Made by a program: the position numbers and the translations under genes. Shown one piece after another: positions 21,635 to 43,562 of a DNA stretch of 64,000 nucleotides. The DNA comes from an uncultured virus (IMG/VR IMGVR_UViG_3300010342_000399) (Duplodnaviria; Heunggongvirae; Uroviricota; Caudoviricetes): IMG/VR virus record IMGVR_UViG_3300010342_000399. One strand, written 5' to 3'. How positions within the stretch are numbered: the first letter of the stretch is position 1; each line of letters starts with the position of its first letter. The notes under the pieces were generated by a model that saw only the letters and a program-made list of their open reading frames with translations, was not told the origin of the DNA and did no database searches.

Positions 21635-21924
21635 TTCATTCTATTTAATATATTAATGATGATATCCGCTTCTTCTTTTGTGATAGACATATGTTGAAAT
21701 GAACCATGACTTCCACATTGAGTTATATCATAACCACTTTTATTTCCCCATTCTGTTATTTGAATAGTACTGCCCCAATTAACACAATCTTCAACAATTG
21801 TTTTAACAAAAAGTTCATTAGATGACGCATCTAATTCCATAACACTTTCATATTCTCCGGTTTCGAGAATTTTGGGTGTTTCCGTAACTTTTATTCTAGT
21901 TGGCATTTTCTTCTTCATAATCAT
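21631..21924 (-). CDS. Hypothetical protein
   Basis: EWGN..GYDI motif; coupled to the helicase gene. Confidence 0.65.
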   Translation of the reverse strand: MIMKKKMPTRIKVTETPKILETGEYESVMELDASSNELFVKTIVEDCVNWGSTIQITEWGNKSGYDITQCGSHGSFQHMSITKEEADIIINILNRMK

Positions 21925-24562
21925 TTTCCTCGTTTATTAATATTGTTGCTGATGTTGTGGGTCTGGTAAATGACGTATATTTTAATTGATTTCTTTCTTT
22001 AATAATTCGATTTAAATCTATATCATTTTCCATGACAAATACATGAGTATATGTGCTACCTTGAGAATTATGAACAATAAAGCCATCAGCTACATATTGA
22101 TGAATATTTTCAATTTCTAAATCATACATAATTTTTTCATCAATTTCTTCAATTTCAACTATTTTATCATAAAAATATTGATTTTCTAATATTTTTATAA
22201 AGAAATGATCTATACCTACTTTATTTGAATTATAAATTTGAATAATATCTTGAAGATGAGAATATGTTAATTTTTTATTTTTCAGATAATATAATAATTT
22301 TTTTTGTTCTTCACTTGGCATTTTTATTTTATCTCTTTTTATCATTTCTATAATTTTATGCCTAAATGGAATAATATCGAGATTTTTATCGTTTATTGAG
22401 TTACAATTATCTATATCATTTTTCTTTCTATTAAGTCTACATGATATGTATTTTCTATAAATTAAACTATTCTTTCCTGATATAGATAATATGTATGATT
22501 CTTGATTTTTAGTATATGATGAAATTATTCCAAATTCTAATAACAAATTTTGAACTTGTTTAGTTAAAGTATATGATTTATTAATAAAATTAATTGTGCC
22601 ATTTTTATTAATAGTTCCATTTCCATCAAACAACCCAGCAATAAAATCAGATTTTTCTTGATATGTACCATTTAATACTAAAAATGGAACAGATTTTTCA
22701 TTATGATTTTCATACTTTAAACCAATACTATGTAAAAATGTTCTCCATTCTGCGTTTGTGACAATAATGGTTGTTACGCCATGTTCTTTATCTATATGCT
22801 CGCCAAAATATAATCCTCTTCCATTATAAAACTGTTTTATAAAATCAATATTATCAGTATCATTGATATCTATTGTTATTGATAATGTAAATTTTTCATT
22901 TATATTATTATAATATTCATCTGCTATGAGTAACCCCATATAATAATGTATCTCACGATTAGATAAGGATAAAGATGTTTCCAAAGAACATCTATTTATT
23001 GGGATAAAATCACCAATTTCATATTTTTTTAATTCTTGAAACTCATTATCAATATTTAATATTTTATGATCTTGCGAGCACTCAATTTCGTAACCATATT
23101 CGGTTTTTATTTTATATGCTTTCTTATAACCGACATAAATTTTATCTATAATTTTTTCAAAATTATTATTACCGGAACATACGCTATCGCCAATGTTTAT
23201 ATTCTTTATTTTAACAAATCCATTGCGGGTTAATACTTCGGCATCTTCTGATATACATTTATGTGCTGTAATAGCCATACCATAGTCCATATCTTTTACT
23301 ATTATTTCATGTTTATTTCTTGATTTACCATCTTTAAATTTCATAATTGTTTTCATAAGAATGTTATTACGTCTAAAATCATAATATTCATTCCATGCTC
23401 CTATTCCATTATGTTTTTTACCATAATCTTTATAGAGATCATGTAATTCTGCATATCTATATAAATTATCATGATCTTTAATATCTATTATGAATATATT
23501 CTTATATTTAAATTTACCATGAGGAAGATCTTCCCGTATTTGAACAAACCAACCTTTAATTTTATATTTATTTTCTGTAAGATCCGATTTTTTAACAACT
23601 CTATAATCAGCAGAATTTTCAATAATATTATATCGTGAAGAAACTGATCTTATGCTTCTATACGCCATTAATATATCACCAATTTCAATAACATCCGCAT
23701 TATCTCCAAATAATGTTGTTCTGATAACCTTATTCGCTCCTTGTACTGTTTTATTTCTCCATGCAATTACTTTAGCAAAATCTGTATTCAATTTAAATTC
23801 ATCGGATGTATATTTTTTAAGGATTTCATTTTTAAATTCTATTTTATCACTTATAAATCTAATACCTTCTCCTAGGTCATTCATTTCACTTTTTCTAACA
23901 AAACCGCCATCAGGTTTATTTAAATTATTTCGAAGAACATTTGAGATATTAAAAAGCGGATTGGATTCACTTTGCCTTTCGATTTTAGTTAACTGATAAT
24001 ATTCGTTTTTGAACTGATTAAATACAACACTTTCTTTTTCTCCAACAGGTGGTATTTGTGCAGGATCACCCATAAAAAGAACTTTTGTTTGTGTATTTTT
24101 AGTTTCATCAACAATTATATTATAAAGATCTTCATTAATCATTGATGACTCATCTATAATAACAAGATCATAATCCGTAATTTTTGGAACAGCAATTGGG
24201 GCAAATTCAGGATCATTTGGATTAAAATTATCTAGATCTACATCAGGACGAAGTCCAAGTAAGGAATGTAGAGTTTGAGCATTCATATTTGTTGTGCTCA
24301 TTAAAACTTTTTTAGCTTTATGTGTTGGCGCACTCACAACAATCTCATGAGGATATTCATCAATAATTTTTTTTATACATGTAGTTTTTCCAGTACCTGC
24401 ATGTCCGGCTAGCGTGAAAAATGTATCACCATTTTTTAACCAATAACGAATTTTATTAATAGCTTCATATTGTTCATCATTGAATGTAATTATTTTTCCT
24501 GTTGGTAAAATTAACTGATTTTCTTCAATACGTTTAGTTTTTTTATATTTTTTTGACATCAT
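21896..24562 (-). CDS. Dda/RecD-like SF1B DNA helicase containing an intein
   Basis: GHAGTGKT, APTHKA, IDESSM, GDPAQIPPV, TAHK|SQGSTY split by the intein. Confidence 0.93.
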   Translation of the reverse strand: MMSKKYKKTKRIEENQLILPTGKIITFNDEQYEAINKIRYWLKNGDTFFTLAGHAGTGKTTCIKKIIDEYPHEIVVSAPTHKAKKVLMSTTNMNAQTLHSLLGLRPDVDLDNFNPNDPEFAPIAVPKITDYDLVIIDESSMINEDLYNIIVDETKNTQTKVLFMGDPAQIPPVGEKESVVFNQFKNEYYQLTKIERQSESNPLFNISNVLRNNLNKPDGGFVRKSEMNDLGEGIRFISDKIEFKNEILKKYTSDEFKLNTDFAKVIAWRNKTVQGANKVIRTTLFGDNADVIEIGDILMAYRSIRSVSSRYNIIENSADYRVVKKSDLTENKYKIKGWFVQIREDLPHGKFKYKNIFIIDIKDHDNLYRYAELHDLYKDYGKKHNGIGAWNEYYDFRRNNILMKTIMKFKDGKSRNKHEIIVKDMDYGMAITAHKCISEDAEVLTRNGFVKIKNINIGDSVCSGNNNFEKIIDKIYVGYKKAYKIKTEYGYEIECSQDHKILNIDNEFQELKKYEIGDFIPINRCSLETSLSLSNREIHYYMGLLIADEYYNNINEKFTLSITIDINDTDNIDFIKQFYNGRGLYFGEHIDKEHGVTTIIVTNAEWRTFLHSIGLKYENHNEKSVPFLVLNGTYQEKSDFIAGLFDGNGTINKNGTINFINKSYTLTKQVQNLLLEFGIISSYTKNQESYILSISGKNSLIYRKYISCRLNRKKNDIDNCNSINDKNLDIIPFRHKIIEMIKRDKIKMPSEEQKKLLYYLKNKKLTYSHLQDIIQIYNSNKVGIDHFFIKILENQYFYDKIVEIEEIDEKIMYDLEIENIHQYVADGFIVHNSQGSTYTHVFVMENDIDLNRIIKERNQLKYTSFTRPTTSATILINEENDYEEENAN
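22067..23257 (-). mobile_element. 397-aa intein with a LAGLIDADG homing endonuclease domain
   Basis: Begins CISEDAEV, block B CSQDHKI, GLLIADE and AGLFDGNG motifs, ends YDLEI..IVHN followed by Ser. Confidence 0.95.
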
Positions 24563-29623: not shown

Positions 29624-29698
29624 GGAGTGGTAGAGCAGTTGGTCAGTTCGCATCGGATTGAAAATCCGGAAATGGTGGTTCGATTCCACCCCATTCCA
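29624..29698 (+). tRNA. tRNA-Phe(GAA)
   Basis: ggagtgg/ccattcc acceptor; tcgga-ttGAAaa-tccgg; 2 extra nt before the anticodon stem. Confidence 0.8.
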
Positions 29699-29758
29699 CA
29701 ATATTCGGTTCGAGTCCGATTGGTTACACAATTGATATTTATAGTTATATATTTAATT

Positions 29759-30613
29759 ATGAAAAAAGTGGTTCTTACTCTAATATTAATTTTTATCACA
29801 ATTTATGCGCTATCACAAGATATTGTATATGATTCTCTAATAGGAAACAAAAATTATTGGAGAAGAATAAAAGTTGGTGAAAATGAAACAATTCTTAACA
29901 CTTATTTCCAGAATCAAGGAATTATAAGTAAATCTAAAATTCTAATGGCTGCCGGTATTTGGGATGGACTTGTGGAAAATATTGATTATAAAATCATTCC
30001 TTTAGATTATGAAGTTTTAACAATTGAATTCAAATCAGATGAAATGTTAAATTTGATTCTTTACAAATACCAATATAATGAAAATTATTCATATAATTTC
30101 TTGGGATTAAGAAAAGCCAAATCTGGGGATGATTTATTTACTGGAAAATATTTATTTGTTTGCCCCATTCCATTAGATTCAAAAATTTCTGTTTATAATG
30201 GATTGGGATCCAAAAGAAAGTTGTTTCTGTCAATGAATGGAGATGAAATAGATGAAAACTCATATACCGATTATAATATAAATAAAGAAGTTACGTTTAA
30301 AATAATAAACGGTAAAAAAAGACTAATGCAACCCATAGTTAAAAATTTTATAATTAATGAAAACGATTATGAAAGCCGTATAGTTGCTTGGCCAAATCCT
30401 GTTAAAGATATGTTACATATCAAAATTTTAGAAAATCCGGGACTTATTTTAAGAATTCACACATTAACTGGTTTAACAAGATATGAATCATTAATAAATT
30501 CAGAAATAACTGATATTAATTTATCTTCATATGTGCCTGGAACATACGTTCTAGTTTTTACAGATAATACTAATACGAGTATTTTACATACAATTAAAAT
30601 AATAAAAAGGTAA
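29759..30613 (+). CDS. Secreted protein with a T9SS type A C-terminal sorting domain
   Basis: Signal peptide from ATG 29759; WPNPVKD..I..LTG..INLSSY.PGTY..KIIKR. Confidence 0.88.
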   Translation: MKKVVLTLILIFITIYALSQDIVYDSLIGNKNYWRRIKVGENETILNTYFQNQGIISKSKILMAAGIWDGLVENIDYKIIPLDYEVLTIEFKSDEMLNLILYKYQYNENYSYNFLGLRKAKSGDDLFTGKYLFVCPIPLDSKISVYNGLGSKRKLFLSMNGDEIDENSYTDYNINKEVTFKIINGKKRLMQPIVKNFIINENDYESRIVAWPNPVKDMLHIKILENPGLILRIHTLTGLTRYESLINSEITDINLSSYVPGTYVLVFTDNTNTSILHTIKIIKR

Positions 30614-34736: not shown

Positions 34737-35816
34737 TTAAAAATCTCCATCTTCATCATTTTTAATAAATGGTTTTTCATATTTAGGATATAACATATCC
34801 CAAATTAAATGTGAATAATCTTTATTATCATACATATTAAAAAATATAGGATGATACTGTTTTTTGTGCTTCAAAATTTTTTCTGCAACTTCTTTTCTTG
34901 TTGATTTATCCGTTGGCATAATATCAGATTGATAAATTATTTGACATTCTCGTTTTAATGTTTCGAATGATGTCGTCATTTCGTCTAATATTTTTTTAAT
35001 CCATTTATCAAATTCATCGGGGACATTGTCTAAAATATTATCTATTGATTTATTATTTTTCAAATATTCCCAGATAGTTCGGCTCGAAAATTTGGTTAAC
35101 ATTGAATGTAAACGACAATATTCAGCCCCCTTTATCTTCATTCTAAATCCCGATTTAAATCGTACAACATAACCCTCCGCATCATCCGATATCATTGATT
35201 TAAGTACAGTAAAATCGTTTATTCCATCATATTTTTTTACAATATTAAATCCTGCCAAATTTTGAAAATCATTACCATGAATATTAATTTCAAATCCATA
35301 AGGAATATTAATACAACCTATAAGAATTAAATCTTCAAAATCATATTTACATACAATTCGTCCTTCTTTAAATATTATTTCAAAAATATAAGTATATTGC
35401 GTATTAAGTTTTTTATATTCATATTTTTGTAATAATTCCCAGCCCTTTTGAGCATATTTTGATGTAAATGATCCACGAGAAGCAAATATCCATTCTCCAT
35501 CATAAAAAAATAATAGACCTAACTGCCCATCCATTTTTTCCGTAATCTCAAATGGTTCATTAGGAATTTCAGATGGATCCAATTCACTATGGTTAAAAAA
35601 TTTTTTGAAGCACCTGCTGATTATTTTCCCATTCTCATCAACCACGAGTCCTCTACAGGAAAGTGTTATTTTGTCCCATATCTTTTCGTATTGACACTTT
35701 CGGGCATAATTCAGTATCCATATATTCTTGGTTGGGTGTTTTTGTGATATTAACAACCTATCCTGAAGATATTCATTAATCGTTGCCCACGGCAGGCTGA
35801 TAAGTCCTTCTTCCAT
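34737..35816 (-). CDS. RNA ligase, T4 Rnl1-like
   Basis: CRGLV, KKFFN, EKMDG, SRGSF, FEII, EGYVV, KIK..EY. Confidence 0.92.
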   Translation of the reverse strand: MEEGLISLPWATINEYLQDRLLISQKHPTKNIWILNYARKCQYEKIWDKITLSCRGLVVDENGKIISRCFKKFFNHSELDPSEIPNEPFEITEKMDGQLGLLFFYDGEWIFASRGSFTSKYAQKGWELLQKYEYKKLNTQYTYIFEIIFKEGRIVCKYDFEDLILIGCINIPYGFEINIHGNDFQNLAGFNIVKKYDGINDFTVLKSMISDDAEGYVVRFKSGFRMKIKGAEYCRLHSMLTKFSSRTIWEYLKNNKSIDNILDNVPDEFDKWIKKILDEMTTSFETLKRECQIIYQSDIMPTDKSTRKEVAEKILKHKKQYHPIFFNMYDNKDYSHLIWDMLYPKYEKPFIKNDEDGDF

Positions 35817-35904
35817 TTTTGATGTTATATGTTAAGACGTTCATTTTTTTTATCAATACTATAACAATATTGTCCCTTTGGAATTACACTAGTATCTTTC
35901 ATAT

Positions 35905-36578
35905 TTACTCAAAATTATTAAGAATTTTATCACCGTGATGATCATAAGGTAAGTCAAAATCAATTGGCCTTTTTAACATTATTGGAATAACTTCATTTAA
36001 TAAATTATACGGTCTAAATTCGGGATGACCATCAATTCCTATATCCATACTTCTACCTTTTCCAAATCTTCGTTCACTCATAAAATGAGTATGCCCGTGA
36101 AGATGAATATTTCCTTCTCTCATATTTTTCCATGATAAAATAGGATAATGAGACAAATGAAGAATATATTTATCGATTTTATAATCTTCATTAGCATTAT
36201 CAACAGATAAAAATAATTCACGAATATTGCCTTTATTTTTTTTTATATGATGATCATGATTTCCTAGAATAAGAATAATGTTTTTACATGTTAATCTATC
36301 ATAAAACTCTTTAATAGATTCAAACCCACCAAATGACCAGTCTCCCAGATGAATTAATATATCATCAACCATAACAACATTATTTATATTATTCACCATC
36401 ATATCATTCATTTCATCTAATGTAGAAAAATCCCTAGTTTGTTCAATTGGTATACTCCCATCTGGATTTCTCCATTTTGTAACACCACGGCAAATGTTCT
36501 TATGATTATAATGTGCTAAGTGTCCGAGGTAATCCACACGTTTTGTGAGGGTACCTCGGACATATTAATTTTAAACAT
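35905..36578 (-). CDS. Calcineurin-like metallophosphoesterase with a 5-nt discontinuity in the first motif
   Basis: ATG 36578 gives ..VWITSDT then TAG; HYNH, HLGD, GNHD and HGHTH follow in another frame. Confidence 0.8.
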
Positions 36579-40242: not shown

Positions 40243-40452
40243 GTTATTCTATCACCTAATATAAATATCTAAATATTCGTTAATTTAAAAGATTTTAAAC
40301 GATATCGTATTATCAAAAACTACACAATTCATAGCAAATATGCAAGACTTTTTTTTGGGGGGGGGGGTGTATTAATGAAATCAATGCAGCAATAAAAAAT
40401 TATCAAAAACATGTTGCTGCGGTAATGAATCACTATCGCATCATATTTAGAT

Positions 40453-40482
40453 AAAAAAAGGGGGGCGCTTACCCCCTTTTTT
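40453..40482 (-). terminator. Intrinsic terminator closing the tRNA/Pth2 unit
   Basis: aaaaggggg-loop-ccccctttt with flanking A/T runs. Confidence 0.85.
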
Positions 40483-40819
40483 ATTTTTCCCCCTTAACTG
40501 GAACTTCTTCGAGATACTTATACCCCTCTAAAATTCTATCAATTGATTTCTGAAATTTCTGAAGTGGATGATTTTCTTCAGGATAATGATTTTCAATCTG
40601 GGAAAAACTTTTACCTCTGGCGATGCCATAGACTGCATACATAATACATAATTTCTCACGATTTATTAAATGCTGTCTTGTGGCTTCATTTGCATCCATC
40701 AATCTGTCACCTTTAATGTGAACAGTTTTTCTTTGATTTTTATAAAATTTCTGAATTTCGGCTGCTTTTTTAATGCCGTCTTTCATTGCTGCGATGTTTA
40801 TTTTAATTAAAGTTTCCAT
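40481..40819 (-). CDS. Basic hypothetical protein, last gene of the suppressor/Pth2 unit
   Basis: K.QRK..H and Y..ARGKSFSQIE motifs. Confidence 0.8.
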   Translation of the reverse strand: METLIKINIAAMKDGIKKAAEIQKFYKNQRKTVHIKGDRLMDANEATRQHLINREKLCIMYAVYGIARGKSFSQIENHYPEENHPLQKFQKSIDRILEGYKYLEEVPVKGEK

Positions 40820-40982
40820 AATAATATGAATTTAAATTTATAATAATTTTTGTGTAAACAATTTTGTTTATTTTTATGATTTATGTTACATGTTTTATGT
40901 AAAATTATTGCATATTGCGATTTACGATATGTTTATATGATTTGCAATTCGCAAATCATGCATCGTATTGATAATAACATTA

Positions 40983-41018
40983 TTATGGAGGTCTAATTCG
41001 TGCCTATGATTTTTTCAT
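40983..41018 (-). CDS. Mini-ORF MKKS-(TAG)-ARIRPP-stop, candidate arrest peptide
   Basis: ATG AAA AAA TCA TAG GCA CGA ATT AGA CCT CCA TAA, 4 nt after the Pth2 stop. Confidence 0.6.
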
Positions 41019-41022
41019 AATT

Positions 41023-41352
41023 TCAATTTTTTAGTGCTAAATCTAATTTACTTGTGTATTTACACATTTCAGGTGTTCCATAAAAACAAAAAGCTGTCAT
41101 CTGGTTTTGAACATCTGGCTCATAAAAAGCAACTATGTCAGCACCATAATACTGCAATTTATTATATAGGTCTTTGAGAGATTCTTCATTACTGGTAGAT
41201 AGAGAAATCAAATAATTTGATTCTTTTTTCCAGTAAATGAATTGAGATGGGAATTTTTGTGCAAATTCAGCAATTGCGTGTGCTGATTGGACAAGTTGAT
41301 AACCTGCGGAAAGGTCTTTACGAGTTACGGTTACTAATTTTACCTACTTCAT
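41023..41352 (-). CDS. Pth2-family peptidyl-tRNA hydrolase with amber codon 3
   Basis: ATG AAG TAG GTA.. gives MK*VKLVTVTRKDLSAGYQLVQSAHAIAEF..W..EESL..FYEPD..TA..KLDLAL (109 aa). Confidence 0.82.
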
Positions 41353-41432
41353 AATGTTTATTTTTAATAAATACTGTTGTTTCATAAACAATTACAATAC
41401 CAATTAATTTATCCGTCATTTTGTCACTTTTG

Positions 41433-41503
41433 TGATTCCTGTGGGATTCGAACCCACGAATACTTTTTTAGAGAAAGCCGTTTTACCACTAAACTAAGGA
41501 ATC
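41433..41503 (-). tRNA. Amber suppressor tRNA (anticodon CUA)
   Basis: gattcct/aggaatc acceptor; gttt/aaac D-stem; gcttt-ctCTAaa-aaagt; gtggg-ttcgaat-cccac. Confidence 0.9.
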
Positions 41504-41649
41504 TTAATCATCTGCTAATTTATATATTTTTTTTCGAATTATTTCGTAGTTTTTAAAACACAGACACATTGTTTTAAATGTTTTTCCGTTCGCTTTTTTT
41601 ACTTTTGATTTTAAGCACATATTTATGATTTTTCACATAAATACTTTAG

Positions 41650-41721
41650 TACCCCCGACAAGAATCGAACTCGTATCTTATGGTTCGTAGCCACACGTTT
41701 TATCCGTTAAACTACAGGGGC
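41650..41721 (-). tRNA. tRNA-Arg(ACG)
   Basis: tgtgg-ctACGaa-ccata; canonical cloverleaf. Confidence 0.88.
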
Positions 41722-41772
41722 AAATGTTATTCTTAAATTACATATAAAATGACAATAACAAGATAATTTTTG

Positions 41773-41844
41773 TACTCCCAGAGGGAATTGAACCCCCATC
41801 AAAAATTTAGAAAATTTTCATTCTATCCATTGAACTATGGGAGC
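41773..41844 (-). tRNA. tRNA-Arg(TCT)
   Basis: aaaat-ttTCTaa-atttt; gctccca/tgggagt. Confidence 0.82.
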
Positions 41845-41870
41845 AGGCTTGAATAGTTATATTTTATTAG

Positions 41871-41944
41871 TACCCTCGATGCGACTCGAACGCATAACTC
41901 ACAGATTAAAAGTCTGTTACTCTGTCCAATTGAGTTACGAGGGT
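41871..41944 (-). tRNA. tRNA-Lys(TTT)
   Basis: acaga-ctTTTaa-tctgt; accctcg/cgagggt. Confidence 0.92.
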
Positions 41945-41965
41945 ATTATTTTTTAATAATGATTG

Positions 41966-42038
41966 AGCCAACAGTGGGACTCGAACCCACGATTGCCACT
42001 TTACGAAAGTGGTGTTGTAGCCACTGAACCATATTGGC
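41966..42038 (-). tRNA. tRNA-Thr(CGT)
   Basis: ccact-ttCGTaa-agtgg. Confidence 0.88.
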
Positions 42039-42111
42039 AATAAGACTGCAGTAGAACACTATCTACCTTTCCTTTCGATGACTTATGGTTTATAGTCGAT
42101 ACGGTCATTTG

Positions 42112-42185
42112 AGCCTGATGAGGGATTCGAACCCCCAACCCCCTGATTACAAATCAGGTGCTCTCCCAATTAAAGCTAATCAGGC
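42112..42185 (-). tRNA. tRNA-Thr(TGT)
   Basis: cctga-ttTGTaa-tcagg; gcctgat/atcaggc. Confidence 0.92.
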
Positions 42186-42193
42186 ATGTTTTT

Positions 42194-42550
42194 TTATTCT
42201 ACAATATGACCAATTTGTTCTCGAATATGTTTATTATAATTTTCTGTTTTACGAACAGTACCTCTGGTTGCTGGGTGATAGATAAATTCATGCTCGATTT
42301 GATGCTTTTTAAGCACTTTTTTAACCGTTCTTCCGTTCTTCTCATTGCTATAACAGTTCCATCAAAAGATTTAATGTCGCAAATATCGTCTTCAAATACG
42401 TTTAAGAAGGCACAATCATTCCAACATATTCCAATTTCTTTTAATGGCTTTGTATAGAGGTGCGGCTGCGAGACGTTTATCTTTCCAAGTAACGTTCATT
42501 TTTTTTGCAAGTTCACTACGCTGTTCACCGACAAATAGATATTTTTTCAT
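42194..42550 (-). pseudogene. Frameshifted uracil-DNA-glycosylase-like gene inside the tRNA array
   Basis: MKKYLFVGE.., FLNVF..VIAM and IYHPA.RG found in different frames. Confidence 0.5.
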
Positions 42551-42725
42551 ATATTACGAAATTTAATGGATTTTAATTTTGATTTAACCACAACAAATTT
42601 TATTAAATCACATGCTTTTGTAAATTCTTCGGGTAAGACTTTTGGAAAATTCTTACTACATTTCATAATAAAATTTTAAAATAAAAACAAAGATAATAAG
42701 AATAATTTATTATGCAAATATTTTG

Positions 42726-42798
42726 CGCCCCAGACAGGACTTGAACCTGTAACCAATAGATTAACAGTCTACTGCGCTAACCATTACGCTACTGAGGC
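42726..42798 (-). tRNA. tRNA-Asn(GTT)
   Basis: gtaga-ctGTTaa-tctat; G73. Confidence 0.9.
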
Positions 42799-42804
42799 GT
42801 GAAG

Positions 42805-42877
42805 TAGTGGTAGAGGGATTTGAACCCCCAATCTTTTGGATATAAGCCAACTGCGTTCACCGTTACGCCATACCACT
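42805..42877 (-). tRNA. tRNA-Ile(TAT)
   Basis: ttgg-ctTATat-ccaa; agtggta/taccact. Confidence 0.82.
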
Positions 42878-42889
42878 ATTAATATTTAG

Positions 42890-42961
42890 AGCAGGTAGCG
42901 AGAATCGAACTCGCATCCTCAGCTTGGAAGGCTGACGCACTAACCATTGTGCTATACTTGC
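42890..42961 (-). tRNA. tRNA-Gly(TCC)
   Basis: tcagc-ctTCCaa-gctga; U73. Confidence 0.9.
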
Positions 42962-43007
42962 AAAACGCACTTCCTTTCTTCGTTTAGTGCTAACCGTAGG
43001 TGGGGTG

Positions 43008-43079
43008 TGGAACGAGCAGGATTTGAACCTGCGACCAACAGATTTTCAGTCTGTCACTCTACCACTGAGTTACCCTTTG
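43008..43079 (-). tRNA. tRNA-Phe(GAA), probably pseudo
   Basis: D, anticodon and T arms intact; acceptor caaaggg/tcgttcc largely unpaired. Confidence 0.6.
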
Positions 43080-43153
43080 TTGTCCTGAGTGGATTTGAAC
43101 CACCGACTCCTACATTATCAGTGTAGTACTCTAACCGACTGAGTTACAGGACA
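43080..43153 (-). tRNA. tRNA-Ile(GAT)
   Basis: ctaca-ctGATaa-tgtag; tgtcctg/caggaca. Confidence 0.92.
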
Positions 43154-43158
43154 ATGAG

Positions 43159-43230
43159 AGAAGGCGACAGGATTCGAACCTGCATAAGATGGGTTGCAGC
43201 CACCTACCTAAGCCATTCAGACACGCCTTC
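43159..43230 (-). tRNA. tRNA-Cys(GCA)
   Basis: ggtgg-ctGCAac-ccatc; U73. Confidence 0.9.
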
Positions 43231-43382
43231 ATATGTAAACATTTGGTCAATCCATAGATTGTGCAGTAATCACCACGTGCAGGTAGTTTATCTTGATTAC
43301 CATCCAGCATGTCAAAGAACCCAATTATCGTATTGTAAGCCGATAATTATTATTTATCGGTTGTTAAGCCGATAAGATTTTG

Positions 43383-43453
43383 AGCCAAGTACAAGAATTG
43401 AACTTGTATTTTCTGAATACCACACAGAGGTTTTACCGTTAAACTAACTTGAC
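43383..43453 (-). tRNA. Atypical tRNA, most likely Thr(GGT)
   Basis: gtcaagt/acttggc; tctgt-gtGGTat-tcaga with a U-U closing pair. Confidence 0.6.
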
Positions 43454-43477
43454 GTATGTAAAGAACGTTTTTAAAAC

Positions 43478-43562
43478 AAAAAACTCGAAACTTTGTGGAT
43501 TTCGGGTTCTTGATTTTATTTCAGTTTATTTTATTCCTATTCCATAATAAAACCTGAACCCA
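43478..43562 (-). promoter_or_regulatory. Transcription attenuator (terminator/antiterminator) ahead of the tRNA array
   Basis: Terminator aacccgaaa..tttcgagtt+U-run; alternative pairing gggttcaggttttatt with aataaaatcaagaaccc. Confidence 0.7.

Follow-up and report, generated by a model that had tools for sequence, protein, structure and literature searches.

A stop-codon gate linked to a cognate suppressor tRNA and a candidate attenuator leader around a PTH2-fold gene of tailed phages

We analysed a 64-kb stretch of DNA (hereafter the window; 27.6% G+C) from an uncultured virus of the class Caudoviricetes (IMG/VR IMGVR_UViG_3300010342_000399), in which a tRNA with the anticodon CUA, complementary to the stop codon TAG, precedes two reading frames that each harbour an early in-frame TAG. 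All features of this module are on the minus strand (Table 1). Approximately 80 nt downstream of the tRNA, a gene coding for a Pth2-like protein opens with ATG AAG TAG GTA, and four bases past its stop codon begins a mini open reading frame (ORF), ATG AAA AAA TCA TAG GCA CGA ATT AGA CCT CCA TAA, hereafter called the leader. An A+T-rich spacer of 163 nt separates the leader from a gene for a 112-residue protein (hereafter P112), and the unit is closed by a hairpin resembling an intrinsic terminator, whose G+C-rich stem of six pairs, five of them G-C, is followed by CTTTTTTTAT. This layout had been proposed from the letters alone by a model (hereafter the original prediction), and its parts were all recovered: the 109-codon Pth2-like ORF with TAG as third codon, the mini-ORF letter for letter, the additional gene, and the hairpin with its T-run.

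Table 1. Position of the module features in the 64-kb window.
Feature	Position	Strand	Evidence
Suppressor tRNA, anticodon CUA	41432..41503	-	ARAGORN, Rfam tRNA
PTH2-fold gene, 109 codons + TGA, TAG gate at codon 3	41023..41352	-	ORF list, Pfam
Pth2 gate TAG, next base G	41346..41344	-	sequence
Leader mini-ORF M-K-K-S-[TAG]-A-R-I-R-P-P-TAA	40983..41018	-	sequence, conservation in relatives
Leader gate TAG	41006..41004	-	sequence
Leader terminal TAA	40985..40983	-	sequence
Putative regulatory helix, 5' arm TCCATAATAATGT	40977..40989	-	minimum-free-energy fold, helix scan, pair counts
Putative regulatory helix, 3' arm ATATTATTATGGA, contains ATG of the 112-residue gene	40815..40827	-	fold, helix scan, pair counts
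Spacer hairpin/palindrome, perfect 9 bp, 5-nt loop	40937..40959	-	sequence, folds
P112 gene (112 residues), putatively leader-controlled	40481..40819	-	ORF list
Intrinsic-terminator-like hairpin and T-run closing the unit	40451..40476	-	stem 40476..40461

The tRNA, which had been placed at 41433-41503, is called one position longer by ARAGORN, with the anticodon CTA, and scores 69.4 bits with the Rfam tRNA model (gathering threshold 29). The gene thus has the canonical cloverleaf, and its anticodon can pair with a stop codon. Its first pair is G1-C72, its discriminator is A73, its anticodon loop reads CUCUAAA, and CCA is not encoded. It is the final gene of an array of 13 tRNAs. No parent tRNA for it was found within the window, the best match being identical at 48 of 72 positions.

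The read-through product of the Pth2-like ORF has a marginal match to Pfam PTH2 (E-value 7.4e-05, 23.4 bits for a cut-off of 23). Profile comparison, which had been suggested as a check, supports the assignment: a profile of eight family members matched five Pth2 entries of the PDB with E-values of 3e-07 to 2e-03, the best being 2zv3_A (3e-07) over its full length. The AlphaFold2 model has a mean predicted local distance difference test (pLDDT) score of 96.3 and a predicted template modelling score of 0.89, and the first 12 Foldseek matches (E-value <=2e-04) are all of PTH2 type, with TMq of 0.72-0.82 and a probability of 1.00. As modelled, the protein has the PTH2 fold over its whole domain. 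It shares this full-length fold with archaeal and eukaryotic Pth2 proteins (PF01981; 2zv3, 3erj, 1wn2, 1q7s and 1xty; TMq 0.76-0.82), with which the phage family also has the R-x-D, Q..H and D...T positions in common. Residues R11, D13, G17, Q19, Q22, H25, W41, E78-P79-D80 and T86 are invariant in the phage family. Its members differ from the archaeal and eukaryotic proteins in being phage-borne, in the gated N-terminus described below and in the replacement of the archaeal G-K motif by G-Y or G-Q. The Asp of E-P-D and the Q..H pair are invariant, and Tyr or Gln stands opposite the Lys. The Lys of G-K and the Asp are what we take to be the active-site residues of characterized Pth2 enzymes; the activity of the phage proteins, which is predicted from sequence similarity, may therefore differ.

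In order to determine how general this arrangement is, we assembled homologous loci from the phage collection, from IMG/VR (55 loci) and from metagenome contigs (scanned with five closer sequences; the best 80 of 164 relatives were kept) and added the window itself. The resulting 150 loci, each fetched with 2.5-3 kb of flank where the often short contigs allowed it, formed 95 clusters at 90% protein identity, which are not strictly independent lineages. In 88 clusters, the Pth2 gene starts with ATG, zero to eight sense codons and an in-frame stop codon, hereafter called the gate. Most often the gate is codon 3 (56 clusters), followed by codon 4 (13) and codon 5 (9); it is codon 2 in three clusters and lies within codons 6-10 in seven. 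It is TAG in 86 clusters, TAA in one and TGA in one, and it is followed by A (59 clusters) or G (29 clusters), never by a pyrimidine. Its distance is constant from the start codon rather than from the conserved domain, the spacer behind it ranging from one to ~30 codons, and it holds in sequences from 23% to 63% G+C. Codon 2, ahead of the gate, varies (Lys, Thr, Ser, Leu, Asn and others). No ATG, GTG or TTG lies between the gate and the conserved domain in 82 of the 88 clusters, and no canonical in-frame start was found in this interval of the window gene either. A purine after a stop codon is a context favouring suppression over termination, and the purine bias behind the gate fits such effects.

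The gate is associated with suppressor tRNAs. These are present in the fetched flank of 59 of the 88 gated clusters and of one of the 7 ungated ones (Fisher p 0.009), on the gene strand in every gated locus whose strand was read. All 59 linked suppressors are cognate to the gate of their locus, each thus being accompanied by a gene whose in-frame stop codon it matches. This includes the two deviating gates: locus L060 combines an ATG ACG TAA GTA opening with a tRNA of anticodon UUA, and in L102 an eight-codon lead followed by TGA GGA goes with the anticodon UCA. These data indicate that the gate codon is selected as a stop codon, cognate to the linked tRNA. The 46 unique suppressor tRNAs have the anticodon loop in common and differ in acceptor stem and discriminator; the amino acid inserted at the gate therefore probably differs between phages, which fits the location of the gate in a non-conserved N-terminal stretch. 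As a side observation, the TAA-gated Pth2 copy of L060 (2486-2811) shifts frame near codon 75, which points to an assembly error or a decaying gene.

This frameshift, together with the Pfam score of the window gene barely over the cut-off, could suggest that the module results from assembly errors, pseudogenes or chance mini-ORFs. A DNA contig of run X9, which may be the source sample, is letter-identical to the window over 40400-41600, and the same letters are found in four loci with 99% Pth2 identity, from three ERZ assemblies and one JGI contig (L070-L073). The early stop codons are thus not assembly errors, a possibility that the original prediction had itself raised; they recur in independent assemblies and in distant relatives. 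The features are present in more than 140 loci, separate assemblies and cultured phages, and strand and shuffle controls argue against chance, making an artefact negligibly probable and for practical purposes refuted. A megablast search of the phage collection with window positions 40300-43500 gave no match.

Several loci opened the prospect that no suppression takes place, i.e., that ATG-x-TAG is a start-stop upstream ORF, that Pth2 begins at the next codon by reinitiation or non-canonical initiation and that the tRNA is unrelated. The codon behind the stop is mostly ATT, ATA, GTA or GTT, some of which are near-cognate starts, and in Mycobacterium phage Bxz1 it is GTG, the annotated start. 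However, this codon is AGC, ACA, ACT, AAA, GAA, AAC, AAT or GGA in several clusters, and terminating mini-ORFs of A+T-rich genomes would mostly use TAA, whereas 86 of 88 gates are TAG. In addition, the stop codon covaries with the tRNA anticodon, and the leaders described below carry the same gate though nothing must start behind it. We therefore find this explanation very unlikely.

A further screen of the 150 loci addressed specificity. We collected ORFs of at least 70 open codons that have no start in their first 15 codons and are preceded by ATG and an early stop codon. The gene strand carried 117 TAG-gated ORFs of this kind and the other strand 7; the corresponding numbers in the controls were 12 and 25 for TAA and 11 and 8 for TGA. 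As 110 of the 124 TAG-gated long ORFs are Pth2-like, and given the strand bias, the early amber gate is a property of the Pth2 family and not a general habit of these genomes. Other ORFs opening with ATG-x-TAG-purine, of 257 and 325 open codons, were noticed in L016-L018 (at 1704) and in L135 (at 433); they are probably ordinary genes, since they have an internal Met further in.

The presence of in-frame TAG codons also raises the question of genetic code 15, in which TAG would be a sense codon throughout or in late genes and the two TAG codons of the module would be devoid of regulatory meaning. The nearest Pth2 relatives include uncultured phage genomes of 460-735 kb, one of which (L008) has a second TAG inside the Pth2 body, and a further body TAG is found in 4 of the 55 viral loci. 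Recoding was proposed to regulate phage late genes in passages of a preprint (bioRxiv 10.1101/2021.08.26.457843), and the window represents only 64 kb of its genome. Within these 64 kb, the ORF lists obtained with table 11 and with TAG read as Gln are nearly identical. An ATG with an early TAG and 60 or more open codons behind it occurs five times in the window. All but the one at 41352 have an ordinary in-frame start just behind the TAG, and a single long ORF of the window thus requires read-through. It follows that TAG is not a general sense codon in the 64 kb examined, as the original prediction had held. The combination expected of code 15, many genes with in-frame TAG and a low coding density under table 11, was not found there, nor is the motif ATGNNNTAGRT enriched in the window (9 occurrences for 7.3 expected). 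In the homologous loci, reading TAG as sense increased ORF coverage no more than the TGA control did, loci of 5 kb being too small for much more. Moreover, a sense TAG would drift to CAA or CAG instead of staying within the first 10 codons over 86 clusters between 23% and 63% G+C, and cultured phages whose annotation uses the standard code carry the module, among them Bxz1, ME3, GAP32, Arash and pT24. Code 15 is accordingly a highly improbable explanation. Recoded Lak and crAss-like phages do resemble the module in that a suppressor tRNA makes in-frame TAG or TGA readable and genes wait for that tRNA, as outlined in parts of the same preprint. They differ from it in that the module consists of one gated gene and one gated leader in standard-coded DNA, with the gate in the first codons and linked to the tRNA.

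We then searched the 150 loci for leaders, defined as an ATG, at most eight codons, TAG, at least one codon with the peptide ending in P-P, and TAA or TGA. This yielded 71 leaders on the Pth2 strand, in 70 loci (40 of the 95 clusters), versus none on the opposite strand and 0.75 in shuffled sequences. The gate, the cognate suppressor and the leader, whose synteny the original prediction had named as a check, thus form a conserved module that is found again in numerous jumbo phages. Leaders conform to M-x(0-4)-TAG-x(n)-[R/K]-P-P-TAA and are 7-15 residues long, and the commonest form, the 11-residue M-K-x-x-TAG-x-x-x-R-P-P found in the window, accounts for half (25) of the 50 unique sequences. 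In this set, the residue before P-P is Arg in 33, Lys in 13 and another in 4, the terminal stop codon is TAA in 49, and a purine follows the TAG in 48. Arg is encoded by AGA, CGA, CGT, CGC, AGG or CGG and Pro by four codons, and relatives of the window leader have kept it with synonymous changes. In a relative with 82% identity, the leader is located farther downstream, behind an inserted gene. Together, these patterns indicate that the leader is translated and selected at the peptide level. In L060, the leader reads ATG ACG TAA GTA AAT AAA CCA CCG TAG, with TAA as the gate and TAG as the terminal stop. The joint variation of tRNA, Pth2 gate and leader in that locus is the strongest single argument that the linked tRNA decodes both stop codons. 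At permissive thresholds, no Rfam family matched the leader, the spacer hairpin or the leader hairpins of the L001 type described below.

The peptide end of the leader evokes known arrest peptides. Short regulatory ORFs ending in Arg...Pro-Pro are found upstream of the genes they regulate in the RAPP/RxPP group, and the original prediction had referred to RxPP-type and Pro-Pro-stop motifs as stalling ribosomes. The reference to RxPP needs correction: the motif is [R/K]-P-P-stop, without the RxPP or RAPP spacing. Passages of two papers (PMC10951233, PMC12992588) describe ApdA, ApdP and relatives as regulatory ORFs upstream of the regulated gene with a conserved Arg and two conserved Pro residues, the Arg being located two residues before P-P and arrest taking place before the second Pro is added. 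In the phage leaders, by contrast, Arg or Lys immediately precedes P-P in 46 of the 50 unique sequences, and a stop codon replaces the A-site Pro codon. In addition, the phage peptides have just 7-15 residues and contain the gate stop, and their stalling is putative.

Structure predictions suggest how the leader may act on the following gene. For leaders of the P112 type, the minimum-free-energy fold is always closed by one long-range helix, in which the leader end (its last Pro codon, TAA and the bases behind) is paired with the AUG-G that opens the next gene and the bases just ahead of it. The window helix is formed by TCCATAATAATGT (40989..40977) and ATATTATTATGGA (40827..40815), and its 5' arm comprises the third base of the first Pro codon, the second Pro codon, TAA and six more bases. 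In an alignment of 21 leaders, anchored manually on both arms, 93.9% of the cells are paired, versus 27-57% when the partner is slid by one to three columns. Compensatory changes affect three helix pairs (10 cells), and the covariation score was reached in none of 500 shuffles. In the more distant loci L090, L109, L146, L037, L031, L065 and L027, the arms are spelled differently with pairing kept. In the clade of L001, in which the leader precedes Pth2 itself, CCUCCUUAA forms the 5' arm of a long hairpin; behind the 3' arm UUAAGGAGG comes a U-rich tract, all of it ahead of Pth2. Such terminator-like leader hairpins are found in 11 loci of this clade and in L027. These comparisons indicate that the 3' end of the leader is paired with the start codon behind it or, in the other clade, is one arm of a terminator-like hairpin. 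As in attenuators, an RNA structure that masks a start or forms a terminator thus overlaps the leader end, and the gated leader apparently serves transcriptional attenuation in addition to the translational type.

The position of the gate relative to the helix is consistent with such a role. The UAG of the window leader is 15-17 nt upstream of the helix, which should stay closed when a ribosome ends there. With the UAA in the A site, a ribosome would, judging from the usual footprint, cover the whole 5' arm. The 163-nt spacer holds a palindrome, and palindromes of 9-10 bp built on words similar to TTCGCAA/TTGCGAA are found at the same place in L061, L082, L083, L089, L095 and others. They could represent operators or RNA hairpins.

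Genes behind 69 leaders were classified: 43 belong to the P112 family, 13 are Pth2 itself, and 13 are other genes. Most of the latter form a family of ~140-155 residues that end in ...EKGDFYK and often start with M-E-T-T; genes of this family were seen behind gated leaders in L008, L022, L040-L047, L060, L088, L089, L093 and L109. The AlphaFold2 model of P112 (pLDDT 92.1) is a mostly helical protein, with a helical hairpin and short strands. It has no Pfam or PHROG match, Foldseek found nothing in the PDB at an E-value of 0.001 or better, a wide VIA-align search gave only helical-hairpin look-alikes (Z at most 6.1), and only unnamed clusters with low scores were retrieved from the protein atlas. 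P112 homologues form 798 clusters at 90% identity, on contigs of up to 372 kb. The 120 homologues listed lack Pfam domains and are either called 'hypothetical' or left unnamed.

Taken together, these observations make it likely, on comparative grounds, that the module is a suppressor-tRNA-dependent gate and attenuator, with Pth2 and P112 made only upon stop-codon read-through. The input of the switch would be the tRNA(CUA) produced from the array just upstream. Pth2 would be translated past codon 3 only if this tRNA outcompetes the release factor at UAG, so that the yield of Pth2 would follow suppressor activity. UAG is also the fifth codon of the 11-codon leader, and without read-through the ribosome would leave there, too far upstream to disturb the 12-13 bp helix; the closed helix would then mask the AUG of the 112-residue gene. 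With read-through, the ribosome would reach R-P-P-UAA, where it would probably linger because Pro-Pro followed by a stop codon is a poor termination context, cover the 5' arm and free the AUG. In the sister clade, the same type of leader would act as the 5' arm of the terminator-like hairpin ahead of Pth2. The switch over Pth2, the RPP-stop peptide and the downstream gene that had been proposed is hence supported in its structural parts, through gate/anticodon covariation, leader conservation and helix pairing, and the mechanism outlined above is the one that we propose. Our best guess as to its purpose is a feed-forward device that makes translation helpers in proportion to stop-codon read-through.

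A number of observations weigh against this interpretation. No suppressor tRNA was found in the 2.5-3 kb fetched for 29 of the 88 gated clusters; since many contigs are short, its absence from the flank means little, and in GAP32, pEa_SNUABM_50 and RsoM2USA, which lack a flanking suppressor, a tRNA(CUA) is present on the same strand at 3.1, 3.3 and ~13 kb, respectively. The megaphages LR745206 and LR756504, with TAG in both Pth2 and leader, yielded no suppressor with a narrow anticodon-loop/T-arm pattern, which misses many tRNAs. Conversely, L039 has two CUA tRNAs and no gate. Six gated clusters have a canonical start soon after the stop codon, such as the GTG directly behind the TAG of Bxz1, and initiation behind the stop may take place in them. 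The G-Y/Q found in place of the archaeal G-K may correspond to the loss of a catalytic residue. The spacer contains a conserved A+T-rich block in addition to its hairpin; this block might be an internal promoter, in which case some P112 mRNA would be devoid of the leader. Contigs from RNA libraries span only 40561-40789 and 41011-41197, without transcript ends, and possibly represent DNA carry-over. Stalling at [R/K]PP-stop is argued by analogy only, given its spacing unlike RxPP/RAPP, and tRNA charging, release-factor competition and the ON/OFF behaviour are, like stalling itself, postulated.

Pro-rich peptide ends are poor-termination contexts, and the leader might mainly sense the supply of Pro-tRNA, elongation factor P, release factor or Pth activity, much as charged tRNA is sensed by classical attenuators, with the TAG setting a baseline. 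The retention of [R/K]-P-P in 46 of the 50 unique leaders is in keeping with this idea, as is the clade whose leader controls Pth2 itself, an arrangement expected of Pth feedback; Pro-rich ends are also described as arrest contexts in parts of the literature (PMC10951233, PMC12992588). Yet the gate is as conserved as the P-P end and turns into TAA along with the tRNA in L060, which argues that the suppressor is an essential input. We regard a leader mainly devoted to another signal as rather unlikely, and the two mechanisms are mutually compatible.

It is also conceivable that the device limits read-through rather than following it. In such a homeostat, the suppressor tRNA, in its aminoacyl or short peptidyl form, would be the substrate of the Pth2-like enzyme, and the gate would be the sensor of a negative feedback that caps read-through. 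The tight linkage of the tRNA and the gated gene across very distant phages, even without another gated gene, is compatible with this model. So are the location of the gate within the first 10 codons, given that short peptidyl-tRNAs of early codons are prone to drop-off, and the departure of the family from archaeal Pth2 at G-K. On the other hand, the substrate role is purely postulated, and a loop acting on itself only needs a further suppressor target, none of which was found in the loci analysed. The terminator-type leader, which would turn Pth2 on with read-through, fits either sign of feedback. All in all, we hold the homeostat to be unlikely, though a serious alternative. The preferred model, a gate and attenuator dependent on the suppressor tRNA, can also be extended to a bolder one, which we deem unlikely: the tRNA-Pth2-leader-P112 unit would be the kernel of phage code change, a regulon that measures the suppressor/release-factor balance and commits the cell to reading stop as sense, with outputs that reinforce read-through, for example against the release factor, or clear its side effects. 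Megaphage recoding would then be the expansion of an ancient two-target regulon, and orphan suppressors would be its regulators.

The gated Pth2 gene is found in cultured phages of diverse hosts. It opens with ATG TAG GTG in Mycobacterium phage Bxz1, with a tRNA(CUA) 656 nt downstream; a first tblastn search matched 201 Mycobacterium phage records, and the start was read for Bxz1 only. The openings are ATG AAA TAG ATA in Tenacibaculum phage pT24, ATG ACT TAG ATT in Acinetobacter phage ME3, ATG ACG CAC TAG AAT in Erwinia phage pEa_SNUABM_50, ATG GCA CAA TAG AAT in Cronobacter phage GAP32, ATG TTG TAG ATT in Ralstonia phage RsoM2USA and ATG CTG TAG AAC in Salmonella phage Arash. In most of these records (L010, L066, L067, L068, L152, L153 and L154), the gated gene is unannotated or truncated at its N-terminus, and the Pth2 homologue is also unannotated in the Yersinia and Serratia relatives of pEa_SNUABM_50. 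The GenBank label of the tRNA(CUA) is 'tRNA-OTHER' in Bxz1 and ME3 and tRNA-Phe in Arash. Ungated homologues occur in XacN1, CM1 and RaK2 and amount to seven clusters in all. A search of one genome per prokaryotic species with Pth2 gave two matches, both in contigs of metagenome-assembled genomes.

Passages of the papers on phages XacN1 (PMC5852040), phiKp24 (PMC8386662) and Atu_ph07 (PMC6102473) report that the targets of their suppressor tRNAs were not identifiable. The Pth2-like gene of XacN1 was considered as a target of its two CUA tRNAs and rejected, because the homologue is the ungated C-terminal part of a longer ORF; the suppressors of XacN1 thus stay unexplained. Full-text literature searches, with supplements and subscription-only papers outside their scope, retrieved no description of an amber-gated Pth2 or an amber-gated leader, and a word search of preprint 10.1101/2021.08.26.457843 gave neither 'hydrolase' nor 'leader'.

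The leader has parallels among bacterial attenuators. As in translational attenuation of the ermC/cat type and transcription attenuation of the trp/tna type, a short translated upstream ORF has its last codons in a masking helix or a terminator-like hairpin, and a ribosome held at the leader end would open the helix. It differs from these systems in its input, which would be stop-codon read-through by a phage tRNA rather than an antibiotic or an amino acid; no natural leader with such an input is described in the literature searched. In prfB (RF2) and tnaC, an in-frame or terminal stop codon is the sensing point, and TnaC ends in Arg-Pro-stop. These two systems sense release factor or tryptophan without a dedicated tRNA, and prfB involves a frameshift. 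Minigenes of the lambda bar type release peptidyl-tRNA and burden Pth. An unread ATG-AAG-TAG amounts to a two-codon minigene, a likeness that we note as a lead only, and codon 2 of the phage gates differs in not being fixed. An engineered analogue, in which TAG was inserted into tna/trp leaders, is described in section 6 of a review (PMC6412442).

Outside the module, the window also encodes a gp5-like spike domain, a T4-type RNA ligase, a phosphoesterase, an intein-bearing helicase and DNA methylases. The RNA ligase, of T4 Rnl1 type, adjoins the metallophosphoesterase (34737-36537, minus strand) ~5 kb from the tRNA array, and the two are likely a tRNA-repair pair. A weak match to the hepatitis delta virus-like ribozyme family RF02682 (43235-43301, minus strand; 23.4 bits for a gathering threshold of 44) lies directly 5' of tRNA-Cys (43230..43158) and could be one of the small ribozymes reported beside phage tRNAs. 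The helicase, of superfamily 1, is split by an intein with a LAGLIDADG domain (21896-24562, minus strand). The product of an ORF on the plus strand (29627-30613) matches the type IX secretion C-terminal sorting domain with a score equal to the Pfam cut-off (27.0), a hint that the host may belong to the Bacteroidota. Because the start listed for this ORF, a GTG, overlaps tRNA-Phe (29624-29699), the true start is probably later. Just downstream of the module terminator, a run of 11 G follows 8 T (40357-40367).

For a large proportion of the suppressor tRNAs that appear as orphans in jumbo phages with the standard code, the module supplies a concrete and conserved target, which had escaped notice since gene callers omit the gated gene or shorten it. 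The module would represent a natural regulator with a stop-reading tRNA as its signal. This signal would act in two places, at a gate in the first codons of an ORF and in a gated leader, where it would free a start codon or open a terminator; synthetic biologists have built such logic by hand. The P112 family, with its 798 clusters, is now tied to translation control. Carriers can be cultured, as they include phages of Mycobacterium smegmatis, Salmonella, Cronobacter, Erwinia, Acinetobacter, Ralstonia and Tenacibaculum. The module is a possible first step toward stop-codon reassignment in phages, and it may explain why standard-code phages keep suppressor tRNAs.

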